Below, one piece after another: positions 2,060 through 11,057 of a stretch of 11,057 nucleotides of DNA (position 1 is the first letter of the stretch; the number at the start of each line of letters is the position of its first letter). The translations under genes and the position numbers were made by a program. Under the pieces are notes generated by a model. That model did no database searches. It was not told the origin of the DNA and saw nothing but the letters and a program-made list of their open reading frames with translations. Origin of the DNA: a virus; UHGV virus genome UHGV-0152719, one strand, 5' to 3'.

Positions 2060-2443
2060 TCAACCAATCAACTTATAGCGACCATCCCGTGCATTGCGAC
2101 GTACACGCTCAATCTTGAGGCATAGCGCCGCATCTGGCTTTTTTGGGACAGGTACGCGGCAATATTCAGAAGATCGAGGAATATTGTTTATCCAGTCGAT
2201 CACTTCACTTAAATACCAGGCCTTACGCCCTTCCGTAACCTGTACGCGTTCGGGGAACTCTCCGCGAGCCTCAAGGTTTAGCAATGTGCGACGGCTAAGG
2301 GTAGTAAGTTCCATCACCTGATTCATATCAACAAGGCGTTCACTTAAACGCATTTTGTCAGCAATAGCCTTTAATTCCTCTACTGCTGGATCCGGATACA
2401 TCATTTCGGCAATTGGCTTAAGGTCATTGTAATGATTCTGCAT
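2060..2443 (-). CDS. AlpA-family (excisionase-like) helix-turn-helix DNA-binding protein, 127 aa
   Basis: Motif LTTLSRRTLLNLEARGEFPERVQVTEGRKAWYLSEVIDWI matches the AlpA/phage-excisionase HTH pattern (G-FP ... W..SEV..WI); ATG at 2443 preceded by AAGGGGGA Shine-Dalgarno. Confidence 0.6.
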   Translation of the reverse strand: MQNHYNDLKPIAEMMYPDPAVEELKAIADKMRLSERLVDMNQVMELTTLSRRTLLNLEARGEFPERVQVTEGRKAWYLSEVIDWINNIPRSSEYCRVPVPKKPDAALCLKIERVRRNARDGRYKLIG

Positions 2444-2454
2444 TGTATCCCCCT

Positions 2455-2796
2455 TTACACACGAGCCAGCGGCTGAACAGAAATACCTGAGCCAACAAAC
2501 GCGGCAACCTTTGCCGACAGTTCTTTTACAGACTCAGGCCAGTTCAGAGCATCAACATTTAAAACGCCTGTCTTATAAACCTGTGCCTGTGTTTTTTTCG
2601 CTGTGTCGATTTGTACAGCGGAAACATAAACCGCTTTACCTACGCTCGAACCATCCCATACCACCAGTGCACCTGTTGCATCTTCCTGCATCAGTGGCGT
2701 AAATGCAGGAATTACCCCTTTATTAGCTGAAAATATCCCCAGCGTAGTCACCAGTGCTTCAGTGCCAGCCATGAGTTCAGTGTAATGAGTAGCCAT
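2455..2796 (-). CDS. Head decoration protein, lambda gpD-like
   Basis: 113 aa; TPLMQEDATGALVVWDGSSVGKAV and NWPESVKELSAKVAAFVGSGISV parallel lambda gpD [24 protein letters not shown] and [33 protein letters not shown] Shine-Dalgarno before ATG at 2796. Confidence 0.8.
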   Translation of the reverse strand: MATHYTELMAGTEALVTTLGIFSANKGVIPAFTPLMQEDATGALVVWDGSSVGKAVYVSAVQIDTAKKTQAQVYKTGVLNVDALNWPESVKELSAKVAAFVGSGISVQPLARV

Positions 2797-2805
2797 TGCT
2801 CCCCC

Positions 2806-3852
2806 TTAGCCAATGCGAACGGTAACAAAACGATTGATGCGGGCCGGTATTGGCTGTGGTGCTGAATGTGTCTGCACATATTCAATAGCCGGATCACCAG
2901 GCACAATATAGTTTTTCGGTGCAAGTTCGGCTTTAGTCAGCCCCATTCGGATTAGCTCCGGATCCTGAATACCGCCATAGGCGACAATCCCCTGAAGAGC
3001 CGTATTGCCAAGCACCATCAAATCAGGATCAAGGAAATGTTTTTCAGTTCCGTCCTCGTCGGTATAACGCCCGCTGTATACAACAATCGCAACATCGCCC
3101 ATATACCCTTTAAAACTCACCGAATCACCAAGGTCTTTAAGAGCCGTTTCCAGTTCGGAATTAGAACCACGACGGGTATCCAGAGCCTCTTTTATCGCTC
3201 TGAATGAACGGTATTTCTTCCATACATTACCGCCCATAATGATGATATTAGTGACGCCCTCACTAAATTCTGCGTAGCTCTCAATATCATCATTTGGATC
3301 AAAAGTTTCTTTATCCTTACCTGACCACTCAGCACCGCCAGACTGAGTGATGATATTTTGTGGTTTAATATTCCAGTCCAGCTCATAACGTTCAATACCA
3401 TCGCCCTCAATGATATTTTTCCCCGTTGTGATTGCCTGAACGGCAAGCCATTCAATACGTGCACGAATAGCTTTAGCCTGATTTACAATCGCCTGTTTAA
3501 CTTTAATATTACGCGCTCCAAAAGCATTGTATTGCTCAGGTGATACACCAGCAGGGCGCACAGCTAACTTATTTGGATCAATGCTGCTTTTCGGCTTCAT
3601 ATAGCCTGGACGAATTGTTTTTGATTCGTACCCTTCGTCACGTGAAACTTTACTACCCACCATAGGAGAACAAAACGCTGCAATTGGGATATTTGGATCG
3701 TCGATTGTATCAAGAATAATATCGCGCGATTCAAACATTACCGAGCGAGTGAAAAACAAACTGGTAAACAACGCATTTAATTTTTTTTGCACATCTTCAG
3801 CATTAGCCACCTGCACAAGCTGTGTAGGCGAATATAAATCAACCATACTCAT
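2806..3852 (-). CDS. Major capsid protein, lambda gpE family
   Basis: Strong similarity to lambda gpE: NIITQSGGAEWSGKDKETFDPNDDIESYA ... RSFRAIKEALDTRRGSNSELETALKDLGDSVSFKGYMGDVAIVVYSGRY vs lambda NITQSGGTEWSKRDKSTYDPTDDIEAYA ... RSFKAVKEKLDTRRGSNSELETAVKDLGKAVSYKGMYGDVAIVVYSGQY. The ORF extends to 3933, but the MSMVDLY start (3852) matches the gpE N-terminus MSMYTT; the alternative ATG at 3846 has better SD spacing. Confidence 0.85.
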   Translation of the reverse strand: MSMVDLYSPTQLVQVANAEDVQKKLNALFTSLFFTRSVMFESRDIILDTIDDPNIPIAAFCSPMVGSKVSRDEGYESKTIRPGYMKPKSSIDPNKLAVRPAGVSPEQYNAFGARNIKVKQAIVNQAKAIRARIEWLAVQAITTGKNIIEGDGIERYELDWNIKPQNIITQSGGAEWSGKDKETFDPNDDIESYAEFSEGVTNIIIMGGNVWKKYRSFRAIKEALDTRRGSNSELETALKDLGDSVSFKGYMGDVAIVVYSGRYTDEDGTEKHFLDPDLMVLGNTALQGIVAYGGIQDPELIRMGLTKAELAPKNYIVPGDPAIEYVQTHSAPQPIPARINRFVTVRIG

Positions 3853-4017
3853 CCTCTTTACATTCATTACAAATAATTGTGAATATATTCTATTACCGAT
3901 GTCTGCTATGCGAATACATGCAACCAAGTGCAATGTTGTATAAAATATGCCGTAACAACTTCAGTGCTGATAATTCGTGTTAATGTATTTACTTCCTTTG
4001 GTTGGGATTTATGTAGC

Positions 4018-5026: not shown

Positions 5027-6781
5027 TTATAAAAACGCGTCGCAATCCTCTGTTGTTGTCACATTGGTTTGCGTAAGTCCTTTAACCCTGCGCGTTATAT
5101 ATTCACATCCGTAAACTTTCGCCGCTGGCTTCATGGCCTTGCTGAAATCAGCCACGTTTAGCGGCTTGCTTCTGCCTGCGTATGCCATAAACGCCAGATA
5201 GACGCGGTAAAGGCTGTTTCTGGTCGTGTACTTCACGGAATCGCCACCGCCACCCATCATCAGGCCGCGCGCTTCCTCCAGAAAATTCAGAAACTGGCAA
5301 AACTCAATAACCGGATCCGTCTGTTGCTTTATCGCCAGTGCTTCTTCACCGTCGCGCTGTTCAATCAACAAATGTCGCGCCTTTTCTGGATCAGCAAAGT
5401 TTGCCAGCAATCTGCGGATAATCACGGGGATTTCAGCCGCGACCTTCTCCGGTAAATCCTTGTCCTTTTCTGCCTCGCTAACGATATTGTCGAAGCGGAA
5501 AATTACGCGACGACGTGACACACCTCCGGCCCGTTCGGTGAATATCATCGGGTTATTGTTGGTAGCCAGCACCACCGCCCTGATTACCGCCGTAAAACGC
5601 TTTTCATATTTCGGGTTTATTTCCACGGGGTCGCCGCCCGTGATTTTCTTGATGCCCGTGCCTTCGCCTGTATATTTCGGCTGGTCAGCCAGGACGATAA
5701 GACGACTCCCGACAACCTGAGCACGCCCACCAGCATCATCAAGCGAAGTCATTTCAGCGCTTACCGTGTTCTGTTTCCCTGCCAGAAGGCTGGCTATGTG
5801 CGTGAATGTACTCTTTCCGCTCCCGCCGTCTCCGGTGGCCTCAATAAACATCTGCCAGTCGTACCGGTTCGCCATAATCATGTACAGCGCGGCACATATA
5901 CGCATCATCTTGCGTGGGTCTTTTCCGGCTGCGTGATCAAGCCATTTATGAAAGTTTGGCGCGTTGTCGCGGATGTTCTCCCCTGGTGCTGGTGGCGTGT
6001 ACTCAATGCCGTTGTGCGTGGTGATCCAGTTCTCCGGCGAGTGCGGGGAAAATTCCCCCGTTTTCAGATTAAGCACACCATTAGTGAACGGTAGCAAATC
6101 GCCAGACGGCTCGCCCATTGGTTCGGCAATAACTTTTAACGCTTCCACGGCGTTATTGATTGCGCGCTTGCTGAAAGTGGCCCTGTGCTCTGAATAGATC
6201 GCCACCATTTCGCGGCTAAGTTCCATTGTGCTGACCGGACACCATACCCCGCCGCGCCATACGTGAACGATTTCACTTTCAGGATGTACGCAAACGCCAT
6301 CAAAGCGATCGGCAAGCAACTGCGCGCGCTCACTGTCCGCCATCTGCGAAAGTTGCGCCTTTTGCTTTACCGGAAGCTCAATGACCAGACCATCAGAAAG
6401 ATTCTGGCGTTCACGGGCCAGATATTCGCGCCAGTTCTGCACCTCCTGGCCGTGCATACCCTCAGGATAAAAATTTGCATCCTGTACGCCTGCTGCCGCC
6501 AGCTTCTGACCAATCGCCTTTATCATTACAGGCGCAAGATATCCGGCCCTGTATATGCGTGCTGATTTTCGGCCTTCCGGCACAATTTGCAGATTATCCA
6601 GTTCGGATAGCTGCTGCTCCCCAAGCCACACAGGAGGCTCATTATCTCCGGCCATACGCGCATCATGTTCCTGCCATTGTTTCGCGTGTGCCCAGGCATC
6701 ACTACCCGCAAAAATAATGACTTCTGTTCCTTTGTGTTTTATGCCGCGTGACTGCTGTTTTACGTTCGGTGCCAGTTTCAT
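5027..6781 (-). CDS. Primase-helicase, phage/plasmid P4-alpha-like (Walker A GDGGSGKS)
   Basis: 584-aa ORF; Walker A motif TGDGGSGKST followed by helicase-like region; N-terminal primase-like portion; typical P4/PICI pri-rep size and position next to iterons; start ATG overlaps upstream gene stop. Confidence 0.85.
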   Translation of the reverse strand: MKLAPNVKQQSRGIKHKGTEVIIFAGSDAWAHAKQWQEHDARMAGDNEPPVWLGEQQLSELDNLQIVPEGRKSARIYRAGYLAPVMIKAIGQKLAAAGVQDANFYPEGMHGQEVQNWREYLARERQNLSDGLVIELPVKQKAQLSQMADSERAQLLADRFDGVCVHPESEIVHVWRGGVWCPVSTMELSREMVAIYSEHRATFSKRAINNAVEALKVIAEPMGEPSGDLLPFTNGVLNLKTGEFSPHSPENWITTHNGIEYTPPAPGENIRDNAPNFHKWLDHAAGKDPRKMMRICAALYMIMANRYDWQMFIEATGDGGSGKSTFTHIASLLAGKQNTVSAEMTSLDDAGGRAQVVGSRLIVLADQPKYTGEGTGIKKITGGDPVEINPKYEKRFTAVIRAVVLATNNNPMIFTERAGGVSRRRVIFRFDNIVSEAEKDKDLPEKVAAEIPVIIRRLLANFADPEKARHLLIEQRDGEEALAIKQQTDPVIEFCQFLNFLEEARGLMMGGGGDSVKYTTRNSLYRVYLAFMAYAGRSKPLNVADFSKAMKPAAKVYGCEYITRRVKGLTQTNVTTTEDCDAFL

Positions 6782-7508: not shown

Positions 7509-7691
7509 TTACACCCCTTTTAATTCATGTACTGCTGCAATAATTACATGTGATAAACCTGCTTTACCGGAATTACTGATTAGTGAATCAATCGCCGCTT
7601 GCATATTAACGGCCTTCACGTTCTGCGTTATTCCGATGGTGTAGCCGCGTTTATTAACTGCACGGGCAAATACGCGGAAGGTTTTAAGCAT
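7509..7691 (-). CDS. Hypothetical protein (60 aa)
   Basis: ATG at 7691 overlaps the stop of the upstream 65-aa gene (ATGCTTAA); operon context. Confidence 0.45.
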   Translation of the reverse strand: MLKTFRVFARAVNKRGYTIGITQNVKAVNMQAAIDSLISNSGKAGLSHVIIAAVHELKGV

Positions 7692-7881
7692 GACTCACTC
7701 CCTGGCGGATTTTTGCAGCGAATACAGCAACACAACCGGACGGGCAACGGCTACGCGCTTCGCGTTCCGTCCAGGCGGTTACGTGGATGATTTGAGATTC
7801 TCCGGCACTCAGTGCCAGAAAACGCCACACAAAGGCCGTTTGTGTGTGTACAAGGTGTGGTATATGATTTACAGCAACCAT
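7684..7881 (-). CDS. Hypothetical protein (65 aa), first gene of the minus-strand replication operon
   Basis: Corresponds to the C-terminal 65 codons of the 356-aa track ORF; internal ATG at 7881 is preceded by a canonical AGGAG SD (ctAGGAGccgttATG); the remaining upstream part of the long ORF is low-complexity and antisense to better-supported plus-strand genes. Confidence 0.5.
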   Translation of the reverse strand: MVAVNHIPHLVHTQTAFVWRFLALSAGESQIIHVTAWTEREARSRCPSGCVAVFAAKIRQGVSHA

Positions 7882-8071
7882 AACGGCTCCTAGTTTACGT
7901 TGTTGGTTAGACGCCCCGTATGTGTTCCCAGCACTGCGGGGCGTTGCTCTTTGTATTTCAACAATCCTTTCGGTGTGTTTCATGTTATGAGCACATGAAA
8001 CACACGTCAAGGCTTTTTGTATTTCTTTTTTTGTGTATACTGAAACACACCGATGATTAGGAGTTTCAGAA
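7882..8071. promoter_or_regulatory. Divergent promoter/operator region between the minus-strand replication operon and the plus-strand regulator genes
   Basis: Perfect 12-bp inverted repeat gtgtgtttcatg-(9 bp)-catgaaacacac at 7973-8005 plus a third half-site tgaaacacac at 8041-8050; minus-strand sigma70-like promoter TTGACG (8005-8010) -17 bp- TAACAT (7982-7987) overlapping the palindrome; plus-strand -10-like TATACT at 8036-8041; 8-bp stem hairpin acgccccg...cggggcgt (7911-7944) in the minus-strand leader. Confidence 0.5.
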
Positions 8072-8377
8072 ATGGCAACGGCTAACAAAAACGCAAAATC
8101 ACAACTGACAACTGTCAGAGTCCCACTAGATGTTATGCAAGGGATGGAATCCGTTAAGCTGGACGGTGAAAGCAATGCCGGATTTATCGTAACCGCCATG
8201 CGCGGAGAAATAGCCCGCCGCCAAGCAGAAGGCAGCGGAGAAAATCCCCTTGTGTCGTCACTGGATGCCCTGGCTAAGGTCGAACAAATCGGCATCAAAG
8301 CAGCCGAGGAGATCGGGCAACTCGTCACCGTCGCGCGTGAAGAACTCCAGCGACGCAAGGTCAAAGAGCATGAATAG
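8072..8377 (+). CDS. Putative ribbon-helix-helix-like DNA-binding protein (101 aa), candidate island regulator
   Basis: AGGAG SD 8 nt upstream of ATG; N-terminal TTVRVPLDVMQGMESVKLDGESNAGFIVTAMRGEIARRQ fits a beta-strand/helix/helix Arc/CopG-like pattern (inference only); divergent from the replication operon. Confidence 0.5.
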   Translation: MATANKNAKSQLTTVRVPLDVMQGMESVKLDGESNAGFIVTAMRGEIARRQAEGSGENPLVSSLDALAKVEQIGIKAAEEIGQLVTVAREELQRRKVKEHE

Positions 8378-8434
8378 CCAATATCAGCGCCATAGTTTGA
8401 GGAACGCAGGCGCATTGCTTTACAGGACAGCACC

Positions 8435-8614
8435 ATGAGCGACACAGAATCAACCAAAACACCATCACCAACTCGTAAGAGACGACGCAAAAATATAGCG
8501 CATGAACATGAATCAGAAAGATTCGCACCTTGTTCGTTTGCTCTTGAGAAATTCCTTAAAGAGCACAGGAAAAAGCTCTCGTTGCAAACCTTGGAACGAA
8601 CCAAATCTGACTGA
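8435..8614 (+). CDS. Hypothetical small basic protein (59 aa)
   Basis: Not in the supplied ORF track (below its apparent length cut-off); ATG at 8435 with AGGA-like SD upstream, in line with the preceding gene and followed by an intrinsic terminator; contains a KRRRK basic stretch. Confidence 0.4.
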   Translation: MSDTESTKTPSPTRKRRRKNIAHEHESERFAPCSFALEKFLKEHRKKLSLQTLERTKSD

Positions 8615-8670
8615 TCACATTGCCCACCAGCCGCAAATGTGGCATTGTTGGTGATGCTTTTGTTTTCCCT

Positions 8671-8700
8671 TGTTCCCACTGGCGACCCTTTTGCGGTCGC
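8671..8700 (+). terminator. Rho-independent terminator of the plus-strand two-gene unit
   Basis: ggcgacc-cttttgc-ggtcgcc stem-loop followed by tttgttttg. Confidence 0.6.
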
Positions 8701-8710
8701 CTTTGTTTTG

Positions 8711-9289
8711 TCACTGAATGCGGTTACCAAAGTAAAACTCAGGCTGATATTCACGTATCAGCCTTTTTTCTTCTTCCTCCAGCTCACGCTTTTTGCGCTT
8801 ACATGCCTGTAGCTCCCTCCCCTTCTCGCTGGCACTTATTTGATATTGCTCTTTACGGCGGGAAAAATCCTGTAATGCACCCCACGGGATACCATAAGCC
8901 CCCGTTTTTCTGATACCTGGTATCACATTTCTGAATACCCAGTTACTGAAACGATGAGCAAATGTGCCCGGCGTCGTTGCTTTGCGGCTGCGGGCTATTA
9001 GTTTGTAGAAACCTGACTCAGAGATAATTCTCATATTCTGATTTCCTCCTGGGGTGTAAGTTAAATTTACTCCCTTTTCATCATCATCAAGCATCTGCAA
9101 CGCCGTACGCGAATTGGTTAGTTCCAGCGCAGCACAAACATCTTTTGCAACAAACCACGGATCGCCGTTCAGATACACCACACGAACGTTCACACTATCA
9201 AAGCGCAGAACGACGAGATCACGAATATCGCAGAATTTTTTCACTGGACGAGCGTACCCCTTGCCCGTCACGGCAATATTTTTATTCAT
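8711..9289 (-). CDS. Bro-N domain protein (phage antirepressor-like), 192 aa
   Basis: N-terminal region VVLRFDSVNVRVVYLNGDPWFVAKDVCAALEL...LQMLDDDEKGV matches the Bro-N/antirepressor N-terminal domain pattern; C-terminal charged coiled-coil-like tail. Confidence 0.75.
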   Translation of the reverse strand: MNKNIAVTGKGYARPVKKFCDIRDLVVLRFDSVNVRVVYLNGDPWFVAKDVCAALELTNSRTALQMLDDDEKGVNLTYTPGGNQNMRIISESGFYKLIARSRKATTPGTFAHRFSNWVFRNVIPGIRKTGAYGIPWGALQDFSRRKEQYQISASEKGRELQACKRKKRELEEEEKRLIREYQPEFYFGNRIQ

Positions 9290-9345: not shown

Positions 9346-9603
9346 TTATTGCTGTTTTGTTTTTCCAGGTTTCCATCCAGGATGCCACTCACCACGGATC
9401 CATGCCTGAACCTCTGAAAGTCGATACCCTGCAGCACGTTCACCGATCTTGATACGTCGCGGGAATTTACCTGCCTGCTCCATTTTCCAGCGTGTTGAGT
9501 TTGCCAGCGTGGTAAGTGCTATGCACTCTTTTTCACGAATGAACCGATCAATGTCCTTCATTGTGCGCAAATCGTTTTCATCAACAAGAGAATAAATTGC
9601 CAT
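9346..9603 (-). CDS. alpA: AlpA-family transcriptional regulator / excisionase-like protein
   Basis: 85 aa with HTH IALTTLANSTRWKMEQAGKFPRRIKIGERAAGYRLSEVQAWI typical of AlpA (prophage CP4-57 regulatory protein family); AAGAGG SD; immediately downstream of the integrase. Confidence 0.8.
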   Translation of the reverse strand: MAIYSLVDENDLRTMKDIDRFIREKECIALTTLANSTRWKMEQAGKFPRRIKIGERAAGYRLSEVQAWIRGEWHPGWKPGKTKQQ

Positions 9604-9604
9604 A

Positions 9605-10846
9605 TCACACCACCTCTTTATTAAGCTCGATAACGTTGTTGTTAAATCCTGCTATCGTATTAAGGTAATTAACCCACATATTAAGCACCTCAAGTTTTTT
9701 CTTTATATGCCTGCTTTTATTGTAAACACCAGCAACCCCTTTCACTTTATGACCTAAAAGAAGTTCGACAATATAAGGATCCGCCCCCATATCATTAAGC
9801 GTAGTGGAAAATGTGCGCCTGAAATCATGTATGCACCACAAGCCATTAGTATCATGACCAAGACGCCTGCATATTCTGTTTGCAGCCCCTGTTATTGTCG
9901 CCCTTTGCAAAGCACAACCGACAACATAACCGCAATTTTTTGTTTCTGCGTAAAGATTAACGATCCATTGTTTTATTCCGTCAGGAACAGGCCTTACTAT
10001 AGCCTCCTTGTTTTTGCTGTGCTCTTTTGGGACTGTCCATACCCAGTTTTTTAAATCCCATTCGTCCCAGGTGGATAGCCTCGCCTCCTGCTGTCGGCAA
10101 CCAAACACCAGGCAGATAACCATTATTCTTCGGTTATATATTGATGACAGAGTTAGCAAATTATTACCGTAAGCATAAGACCATACATCAGCGGTTTCAT
10201 TGATATTAAGAACGCGATCCCTTATACCGGATGAGCGCCCGACATAACTTACGTTAATATCTCCAAAGGGATCGCACGCGATGTATTGCCTGACGCGACA
10301 AAAACGCAACGCCTGTTTGATATCAAGAAAAATTGCACCAGACATAACAGGCGCATTTTTTTTGATCCTGTCAAAGACGGTAAGCCATGTGTGTAATTTG
10401 CACTGTTCTATAGCCATATCACCGATATAGGGGAAGATATGCTTTTCAAATCGTTTTATTAAATATTCATGCTCTTTTCTGGCTGTTGTGGCGTGATTGT
10501 CGTACCAGTAAAACAGCGCATCCCTTACGGTCACTGGTTGCATAGTTTTTTCGGCAGCAAGTTTTATTTGCCTGCGGGGGTCCAGATTTTCAGCCAGCCA
10601 TTCACGGCACTGATCACGCATGCGCCTGGCCGTTGCAAGAGACATGTCAGGATAGCGACCAAGTGTAAGCCATACCGGAGGGGATTCCCTGCCACCAAGA
10701 CGATAGTAAAAAACAAAGCTGATCCCCCCAACCATGCTTACACGCACAGACAACCCGCGCCCATCCGCTATTGTTTTTTGTTTGTCCTGCCGTTTTCCGA
10801 CAAGACTCTTTAACAGTTTGTCACTGAGTTTGTTTTCAATAGCCAT
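9605..10846 (-). CDS. int: Tyrosine site-specific integrase, P4-type
   Basis: 413 aa; N-terminal P4-integrase-like arm-binding region (MAIENKLSDKLLKSL...GRGLSVRV); catalytic-domain motifs including HDFRRTFST and the GVAGVYNKS tyrosine region; GAGGG SD upstream. Confidence 0.9.
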   Translation of the reverse strand: MAIENKLSDKLLKSLVGKRQDKQKTIADGRGLSVRVSMVGGISFVFYYRLGGRESPPVWLTLGRYPDMSLATARRMRDQCREWLAENLDPRRQIKLAAEKTMQPVTVRDALFYWYDNHATTARKEHEYLIKRFEKHIFPYIGDMAIEQCKLHTWLTVFDRIKKNAPVMSGAIFLDIKQALRFCRVRQYIACDPFGDINVSYVGRSSGIRDRVLNINETADVWSYAYGNNLLTLSSIYNRRIMVICLVFGCRQQEARLSTWDEWDLKNWVWTVPKEHSKNKEAIVRPVPDGIKQWIVNLYAETKNCGYVVGCALQRATITGAANRICRRLGHDTNGLWCIHDFRRTFSTTLNDMGADPYIVELLLGHKVKGVAGVYNKSRHIKKKLEVLNMWVNYLNTIAGFNNNVIELNKEVV

Positions 10847-10864: not shown

Positions 10865-10918
10865 TTGCAATACACACCCACCCCGATCGCCAATTTGCAA
10901 TACACATTGCAATACACA
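10865..10918. repeat. Three direct copies of TTGCAATACACA motif upstream of int (partner of 89-110 repeats)
   Basis: ttgcaatacacac 10865-10877, ttgcaatacaca 10895-10906, ttgcaatacacaaa 10907-10920; same motif and orientation as the two copies at 89-110; candidate att-arm / recombination-directionality or int-promoter operator sites. Confidence 0.5.
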
Positions 10919-11057
10919 AAACCGCGAAAAACTGGAAAGGTGATGAACGGTCATCAAAAGCATGGAAAACGACATTCCAGACGCAGCAAGGGTTTCAGTG
11001 GAGTTGGCGAACGATGCGGGCAACTACGGTGAGATGATAGACATAAATCGCCTTCAC

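Follow-up and report, generated by a model that had tools for sequence, protein, structure and literature searches.

A ribbon-helix-helix gene and a small companion gene embedded antisense in a phage satellite: a putative P4-style immunity module with a protein repressor

What keeps the phage-inducible chromosomal islands (PICIs) of Gram-negative bacteria quiescent is the question raised by a locus of the virus genome UHGV-0152719, of which a stretch of 11,057 nucleotides (the window) was analysed. The window represents a phage satellite of about 10.8 kb in which all genes lie on the minus strand except one annotated gene. A global repressor in Gram-negative PICIs has been called "unclear" (Fillol-Salom 2018), while the non-hypothetical genes of these islands have been called unidirectional and their "Bro zone" has been reported to carry P4-like immunity RNAs in some elements (Tommasini et al. 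2023). The initial annotation of the window, made from its letters only, placed at 8072-8614 a plus-strand unit composed of a gene for a ribbon-helix-helix (RHH)-like protein, gene 1, and a gene for a 59-aa basic protein, gene 2, and regarded its position as the one to be expected for a master repressor of the island. The results presented here indicate that both are genuine protein-coding genes, and we favour, with moderate confidence, the view that they belong to an immunity module laid out as in phage P4 and built with a protein repressor.

Two genes within an open antisense frame

Both open reading frames (ORFs) were found exactly where the initial annotation had put them. Gene 1, encoding 101 aa, extends from 8072 to 8377 and begins with an ATG preceded by a Shine-Dalgarno sequence (GGAG at 8060-8063, 8 nt before the start). 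Gene 2, encoding 59 aa, extends from 8435 to 8614 on the same strand and also begins with an ATG, its Shine-Dalgarno sequence (AGGA at 8424-8427, 7 nt before the start) lying in the spacer at 8378-8434. On the plus strand of the island, said to hold these two genes only, RefSeq annotates just the 101-aa gene, in a record carrying the island with 99.8-100% identity to the region studied. From complete genomes and metagenomes, 74 versions of this region were gathered, which collapse to 57 distinct units; 53 of these share a fixed layout in which gene 1, a spacer of exactly 57 nt and gene 2 follow each other in the same frame.

In order to assign the coding strand, substitutions were mapped by parsimony on neighbour-joining trees, each was classed as silent or replacing in both frames, and rates were calculated per mutational opportunity. 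In gene 2, changes silent on the plus strand occurred at similar rates when silent (0.0185) and when replacing (0.0193) on the minus strand, whereas changes replacing on the plus strand displayed rates of 0.0095 and 0.0096, respectively. Likewise, the substitution rates of gene 1 are set by the plus frame alone. Among discordant changes, silent in one frame but not in the other, 26 were plus-silent and 18 minus-silent in gene 2 (p = 0.0005-0.018), against 25 and 12 in gene 1 (p = 0.001-0.003), the ranges covering transition/transversion weights of 1 to 8. Since the rates follow the plus frame only, both plus-strand genes are under selection at the protein level and the amino acid sequence of the minus-strand ORF is not. 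The Nei-Gojobori pN/pS ratio was discarded for strand choice, as it barely separates the strands (0.51 versus 0.57 in gene 2, 0.26 versus 0.43 in gene 1) because both frames share wobble positions.

The plus frame of gene 2 is open in all 39 distinct versions, and the 100 nt just past the gene contain 61 stop codons in that frame (44 sequences), so that openness by chance is excluded. In fact, the homologue of gene 2 in the enterohaemorrhagic Escherichia coli (EHEC) strain EDL933 has been described as "novel gene X019", with a transcript level of 69 and a ribosome-footprint level of 242 reads per kilobase per million (RPKM) in lysogeny broth (LB), a coverage of 0.77, a translation ratio (RCV) of 3.5 and a promoter predicted 269 bp upstream (Neuhaus et al. 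2016). The footprints show that the gene-2 family is translated in uninduced cells, and the position of the predicted promoter is upstream of the RHH gene. The substitution pattern and these footprints thus bear out the small gene proposed by the initial annotation. Its description as unannotated applies to the matching RefSeq record, in which gene 1 is a YlcI/YnfO family protein and gene 2 is unlabelled; it does not apply generally, given that other genomes, CFT073 among them, list homologues as hypothetical proteins and the family is known as PHROG 21027.

The unit ends, as had been predicted, in a clean intrinsic terminator. At 8681-8711 and on the plus strand only, a hairpin (GGCGACC-CTTTTGC-GGTCGCC, stem 8681-8701; local fold z-score -3.4) is followed by TTTGTTTTGT. 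A plus-strand terminator 63-136 nt past gene 2 was found in 39 of 47 distinct downstream regions and is built from three unrelated stems (GGCGACC, GGGCCACC and GCGGCTCC), while the minus strand of the same 47 regions yielded no terminator-like site. The hairpin is thus predicted to end the plus-strand transcript and to let minus-strand transcription through. In the spacer, an inverted repeat (GCGCC...GGCGC, 8387-8413) falls in columns conserved across versions; its reading as an RNA hairpin was dropped, the z-score being -0.8 in the window and another allele folding differently.

Opposite both genes, and overlooked in the initial annotation, runs a minus-strand ORF of 356 codons (7684-8754), which starts with a GTG overlapping the end of the Bro-N protein gene, spans the promoter region, the two plus-strand genes and the non-coding sequence on either side of them, and has its stop codon in common with an Icd-like gene. 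Of the 53 units of fixed layout, 52 are free of stop codons in the minus frame whose wobble positions coincide with those of the plus-strand genes, a frame that is open over 600-1800 nt; in the 13 loci first compared, the other two minus frames contain 4-12 stops each. Within any single gene a stop-free antisense frame is unremarkable (synonymous-codon resampling, P 0.23-0.81), and the case for an open minus frame is consequently made from the plus-strand non-coding segments and from the number of alleles. In 28 distinct sequences of the spacer the shared-wobble minus frame has no stop, versus 1-80 in the other five frames, and in the first 100 nt past gene 2 (44 distinct sequences) it has one, versus 15-134; the plus frame of both genes gains stops normally outside the genes. 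As the minus frame remains open where the plus strand is non-coding, its openness there cannot be explained from the plus side. Moreover, of 49 evaluable units, 39 have the bridging ORF and the Icd-like gene in one frame with a common stop, and in a further eight the ORF ends 9-26 nt before the Icd ATG (47 of 49 together). In Klebsiella, Yersinia and Photorhabdus the same frame runs from the upstream gene to a point 11-15 nt short of the operon's first gene. This comparison of sequences indicates that the bridging ORF is selected to remain open while its own sequence is unconstrained. Few comparative cases show as clearly as this locus how two real genes can be contained, in antisense, in a third frame selected only for openness, and it has a bearing on the origin of overlapping genes and on genome annotation.

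In the island EcCICFT073 the bridging ORF (428 codons, locus L076, 8767-10053) retains part of a Bro-N domain in its N-terminal end, suggesting that the Bro-N gene and the bridging ORF of the window were once a single reading frame.

The same observations bear on the view, adopted by RefSeq in O157:H7, that the long minus-strand ORF is the real gene and the plus-strand ORFs are by-products of a permissive antisense phase. It is open over 600-1800 nt in nearly all variants, the PGAP pipeline annotates it as a 247-aa hypothetical protein in O157:H7 or as Icd-like pseudogene fragments elsewhere, and, the wobble positions being common to both frames, each frame tends to hold the other open. We give this view next to no credence, as substitution rates ignore the minus frame, the plus frame closes just outside both genes while the minus frame does not, and a terminator and a -10 hexamer are conserved on the plus strand. 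Furthermore, gene 1 matches a curated family and a predicted RHH fold, the gene-2 homologue has ribosome footprints, and the N-terminal 290 aa of the minus-strand ORF match no family.

The RHH protein and its small companion

The RHH-like character attributed to gene 1 was confirmed by a profile match and by the structure prediction that the initial annotation had proposed as a check. Residues 9-50 match the full NCBIfam model NF041551 (YlcI/YnfO) with 63.3 bits (E 1.6e-17), this model covering a 42-residue N-terminal domain with a curated cut-off of 30 bits. Short alleles score 59-60 bits and Arc-like alleles 19-21 bits, below the cut-off. In the AlphaFold monomer model (predicted local distance difference test, pLDDT, 82) an extended N-terminal segment with a strand at residues 11-18 precedes helices at 19-28 and 35-54 and a long C-terminal helix at 59-100, and the succession of an N-terminal strand and two helices is that of the RHH proteins of the Arc/MetJ/CopG type. 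The model therefore supports an RHH fold, and from the sequence comparisons we infer that gene 1 binds DNA and acts as a repressor. The protein belongs to PHROG 6522 and has 216 homologues in Escherichia, Salmonella, Citrobacter, Klebsiella, Enterobacter, Yersinia, Serratia, Xenorhabdus and Photorhabdus, some of them named "Arc-like DNA binding domain" proteins in UniRef; a tblastn search against 50,697 phage records retrieved no match. In the C-terminal extension, residues ~45-86 (window 8204-8329) bear a weak resemblance to a helix-hairpin-helix (Hef nuclease 1x2i, E 0.0044); AlphaFold gives the extension as one long helix instead, and it is missing in the alleles of 57-65 aa.

Gene 2 encodes a basic protein that is predicted to be helical. 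Its close homologues number 29 (63-98% identity), almost all of them labelled as Escherichia; they share an invariant core, ERFAPCxFxLExFLKE, between variable termini and differ by whole-codon indels. The KRRRK motif singled out in the initial annotation is present as a basic RKRRRK at residues 14-19; nevertheless, it varies among alleles, and the conserved part of the protein is the ERFAPCxFxLExFLKE core, which is also retained in two diverged members. A profile search with HMMER of 1.8 billion cluster representatives returned only ten matches, and the protein matches no entry in Pfam, NCBIfam or PADLOC and no fold in the PDB. Judging from these sequences, gene 2 is restricted to the Escherichia/Shigella clade. 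Since in other genera (Klebsiella, Yersinia and Photorhabdus) gene 1 stands alone, directly before a hairpin, a difference that the initial annotation had also missed, gene 2 represents a later insertion into the putative repressor transcript. As to its role, our best guess, held with low confidence, is that of an accessory factor of the quiescent state, a modulator of the switch or an exclusion or interference factor.

An RHH gene followed by a small gene, with an operator at the promoter of the unit, is also the arrangement of a type II toxin-antitoxin system, in which gene 1 would be an autoregulating RHH antitoxin and gene 2 a small toxin, serving island stabilisation or abortive infection. 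The best structural matches of the N-terminal 48 residues of gene 1 include, in the model, the RHH antitoxins TacA, Rv0298, CopA-SO and MazE, with which it would share an autoregulatory logic, and there are weak matches to an Rv0623-like PSK factor (E 0.022) and, in one allele, to VapB. We nonetheless find such a system decidedly improbable. Gene 2 belongs to no toxin family in Pfam, NCBIfam or PADLOC, so that gene 1 has no recognisable toxin partner; the genes are uncoupled across the fixed 57-nt spacer, and they are not co-inherited in the three genera that hold gene 1 without gene 2. In addition, the alleles of 57-59 aa almost lack a toxin-neutralising tail, two unrelated C-terminal tails of gene 1 occur with the same gene-2 allele, and most of the operator sites described below lie over the opposite promoter and not over that of the unit.

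Operators, promoters and a P4-like switch

Upstream of gene 1, five 9-bp sites of the form TGTRTTTCW constitute a candidate operator array at 7952-8049: 7952-7960, 7974-7982 and 8018-8026 in plus orientation, 7996-8004 and 8041-8049 inverted, at spacings of 22, 22, 22 and 23 bp. All matches in the 11-kb window fall in this array, five against 0.49 expected by chance, a count that is descriptive as the pattern was derived from these very copies. The palindrome across which the initial annotation saw the unit diverge from the replication operon is real (arms 7959-7985 and 7993-8019) and forms part of the array. When 13 N-terminal alleles of gene 1 were compared, at least ten had a 9-bp motif of their own, repeated 3-5 times at a spacing of about 22 bp over the divergent promoters. 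The offsets from the gene-1 ATG, approximately -31, -52, -74, -96 and -118, are similar among YlcI-type alleles, and EcCICFT073 displays the same layout with GGTGTGGCCCAC sites. The co-variation of the DNA-reading end of the RHH protein with a phased repeat array is, at the level of sequence, the signature of a specific repressor-operator pair. The allele-specific 9-mers, repeated about every 22 bp, also lend indirect support to an RHH dimer whose two-stranded ribbon would read such half-sites. Operator footprinting within alleles was abandoned, the variation being too little to inform.

On the minus strand, a sigma-70 promoter is predicted at 8010-7982 (-35 TTGACG at 8010-8005, a 17-nt spacer, -10 TAACAT at 7987-7982), internal to the island and serving an operon that starts with the Icd-like gene and extends to the primase gene. 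It is overlapped by operator sites 2 and 3; other alleles, and CFT073 too, have a minus-strand TTGACN-like hexamer in the corresponding position, beside an operator site. For the plus strand, a -10 hexamer, TATACT, is predicted at 8036-8041, and CFT073 as well as most YlcI-type alleles have a similar hexamer directly upstream of their final operator copy. Site 5 starts at the last base of this -10, and the repressor would therefore autoregulate. Between the operators and the Icd start, a conserved GC-rich leader hairpin (7911-7944, ACGCCCCG...CGGGGCGT) is followed, on the plus strand, by a T-rich tail; a hairpin with different stems is retained at this place in other alleles, and it may be a plus-strand terminator or a leader RNA structure.

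The geometry of the sites also bears on whether gene 1 could instead be an activator or an architectural protein, needed for instance to fire the internal promoter or the origin. Some RHH proteins do activate or have dual roles, a plus promoter devoid of a -35 would suit dependence on an activator, and an array phased at 22 bp could bend DNA. However, the sites overlap the minus -10, abut the minus -35 and cover the plus start, the usual geometry of repression, and expression in uninduced EHEC cultures suits a maintenance function, so that we consider this role very unlikely.

A regulatory reading of the unit was right in kind, yet "master repressor" goes too far. Because all five sites lie in one 98-bp region, direct control by gene 1 would be limited to two promoters, its own and the internal one on the minus strand. 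In addition, in EcCICFT073, which carries the same module, AlpA is an activator, and its overexpression alone induces excision and replication (Fillol-Salom 2018). For this reason the immunity of P4, acting on an internal promoter, offers a better analogy than Stl of the Staphylococcus aureus pathogenicity islands (SaPIs). The latter is of the helix-turn-helix (HTH) type, is lifted by binding of a helper protein and controls the whole island (Fillol-Salom 2018). The unit of the window resembles Stl, and Rpr of Gram-positive PICIs, in its divergence from the replication operon and in its allelic diversity, and differs from Stl in its predicted RHH fold, in having operators at one locus and in that the published trigger is the activator AlpA.

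Phage P4 carries kil and eta as nested genes, together with two promoters, the internal PLE and the upstream late PLL (Forti et al. 1999, in the summary of Tommasini 2023); when eta is translated from the latter, premature termination is prevented (Tommasini 2023). In the P4 sequence, a 214-codon ORF adjoins vis; its last 65 codons are kil, and its residues 161-208 match the Icd-like model NF033153 with 73 bits. The Icd-like gene of the window (7684-7881, minus strand, 65 aa; ATG at 7881, GGAG 5 nt before it), named Icd-like in RefSeq, matches the same model with 59.6 bits through residues 307-350 of the 356-codon ORF. A pairwise BLASTP of the window protein and P4 Kil produced no alignment, and they are assigned to the same family because both match one hidden Markov model. 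The module lies, like the P4 immunity region, between the primase operon and an AlpA/Vis homologue, and the two have in common an Icd/Kil-like first gene of 65 aa and a long in-frame ORF that begins beside the upstream gene, crosses the (predicted) internal promoter and ends at the Kil stop, as well as, presumably, read-through from an activator-dependent upstream promoter. In contrast to P4, where immunity is an RNA (CI pairing with seqA/seqC), the window appears to have a protein repressor gene, with its own terminator and predicted promoter and operators, on the opposite strand inside the eta-like ORF. To our knowledge, nothing is encoded opposite eta in P4. An Rfam scan of the window found no C4/isrK-type RNA at E <= 1, the only matches being two false microRNA matches on the origin iterons.

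A further parallel is immI of phage P22, in which two RHH repressors, Arc and Mnt, act at the divergent promoters Pant and Pmnt around one 21-bp operator, with an Ant-type antirepressor downstream and no antisense embedding. At the level of the fold, the only one compared, the module is similar in having a small predicted RHH repressor at back-to-back divergent promoters, a probable autoregulation and a second gene downstream on the transcript; it differs in its five phased sites, in a gene 2 that is not of the Ant type and in its antisense position.

Based on this comparison, we hypothesize that in the quiescent island a weak plus promoter (-10 at 8036-8041) would give a single transcript for the RHH repressor and gene 2, the latter being a translated add-on of the Escherichia clade between repressor gene and terminator, which would end at 8681-8701. 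Repressor dimers, seated on five sites two helical turns apart (7952-8049), would block the internal minus promoter (8010-7982), which otherwise would express the toxic Icd/Kil-like protein and the replication genes, and the repressor would limit its own synthesis at site 5. Induction would not require destruction of the repressor, as transcription would come from the upstream AlpA-activated promoter or, in the helper-embedded copy, possibly by read-through from the late operon of the helper. This minus-strand transcription would pass straight through the module and, the 356-codon ORF being translated, the RNA would be covered by ribosomes up to Icd, in a manner analogous to the protection of late-promoter transcripts from Rho-dependent termination by eta in P4. 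Such a role of the bridging ORF in ribosome transit, against polarity, is drawn from P4. The head-on transcription would also interfere with synthesis of the repressor. Loss of gene 1 would accordingly be expected to derepress Icd and the replication genes and not to trigger excision.

Several points weigh against this mechanism. The ability of AlpA overexpression alone to induce EcCICFT073 means that the repressor is insufficient to hold the island off, and the contribution of gene 1 to holding it off is, for all alleles, deduced from sequence. The promoters are consensus matches only, the scan returning two promoter-like sites against 2.7 expected by chance and no good -35 for the plus promoter. 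Likewise, translation of the bridging ORF is deduced from its avoidance of stop codons, and Rho-dependent termination within the module is presumed by analogy. The discordance test is only moderately significant for gene 2, whose model of two helices is of low confidence (pLDDT 66) and which has no recognisable domain. Finally, the sequences compared are related and mostly from E. coli, so that the counts represent non-independent events.

The diversity of operators is, at the same time, what could be expected if the RHH protein acted mainly in trans, in heteroimmunity against related PICIs or in the regulation of helper genes, with gene 2 as an anti-phage or interference effector and the induction of the island itself being secondary. 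The specificity alleles, at least ten, recombine freely with gene-2 and Icd types, as in phage immunity regions under diversifying selection, and gene 2 displays variable termini, a pN/pS of about 0.5 and expression in uninduced cells. Exclusion functions often ride on repressor transcripts, as is the case of lambda rexAB. Nevertheless, the window holds no operator copies outside the array (helper genomes were not searched), PADLOC gives no match, and heteroimmunity is compatible with the P4-like mechanism rather than exclusive of it; a mainly trans-acting role thus seems unlikely to us. The alleles do suggest the existence of immunity groups among PICIs, offer a handle on satellite induction, and represent natural specificity variants ready for swap experiments.

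The prototype island EcCICFT073 shares with the window alpA, a 59-aa YlcI/YnfO gene on the opposite strand, the 57-nt spacer, a 57-aa second gene and an Icd-like gene, with the 428-codon ORF bridging alpA to Icd, and current RefSeq annotation includes both small genes. It differs in having another specificity allele (GGTGTGGCCCAC operators) and in being chromosomal, beside roxA/pepT, and not in a prophage. The literature found on that island reports no function for the two small genes; in the openly accessible literature no paper ties an RHH protein to the control of PICIs, and a 2026 Enterobacter survey gives YlcI/YnfO only as a "prophage-associated protein". Module-like sequence is present in 1825 of 5426 complete E. 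coli genomes (about one third), and the islands of O157:H7 carry the module with an Arc-like 63-aa allele of gene 1. The module thereby offers a concrete candidate that can be put to the test. We may further propose, tentatively and at somewhat less than even chances, that a large class of satellites of Enterobacterales, EcCICFT073 included, use a hitherto undescribed protein-based immunity switch, in which an RHH repressor of at least ten specificities and its translated partner would lie antisense in a ribosome-transit ORF, and head-on transcription and translation would drive the replication genes and shut off the repressor. If so, the module would constitute a naturally occurring toggle in which three genes overlap, and would supply the repressor that Gram-negative PICIs have seemed to lack.

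The surrounding island and its annotation

In the matching RefSeq record, a lambda-like prophage has its portal gene interrupted by the island, and because of this the window is assigned to the helper-embedded PICIs described by Tommasini, Mageeney and Williams 2023. In agreement, int, alpA, the Bro zone, the primase gene and the late genes are co-oriented inside a late gene of the helper prophage. The island and the helper late genes share one orientation, the split portal gene lying at 1-149 and 10995-11057 of the window and at 677-1450 and 12296-13177 of locus L001. Given its place inside the portal gene and its late-gene orientation, int and alpA could be reached by late transcription of the helper.

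All the remaining genes are on the minus strand: the integrase at 9605-10846, the AlpA-type regulator at 9346-9603, the Bro-N protein at 8711-9289 and the P4-type primase at 5027-6781, with four small genes placed between the Icd-like gene and the primase in the gene listing, followed by genes for a single-stranded DNA-binding protein (SSB), major capsid and decoration proteins, an HTH protein and a small terminase.

RefSeq labels the locus in three incompatible ways, and some genomes omit the RHH gene, the small gene or both; inconsistent annotation was seen at loci L003 (3696-4439), L002 (3846-4439), L004 (4143-4538) and L009 (2677-3216).

Just downstream of the primase gene, the segment 4785-5017 is densely occupied by GGTAGAGG iterons, which number at least 12 over the two orientations and surround an AT-rich core, and is very likely the replication origin. 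Repeats of the TGCAATACAC type are found near both ends of the island (88-110 and 10868-10925) and are probably integrase arm or attachment-site repeats. The island has its own major capsid, head-decoration and small-terminase genes (2060-3933 and 1316-1870), with an HTH regulator between them, and this captured set of late genes is the same as in EcCICFT073.

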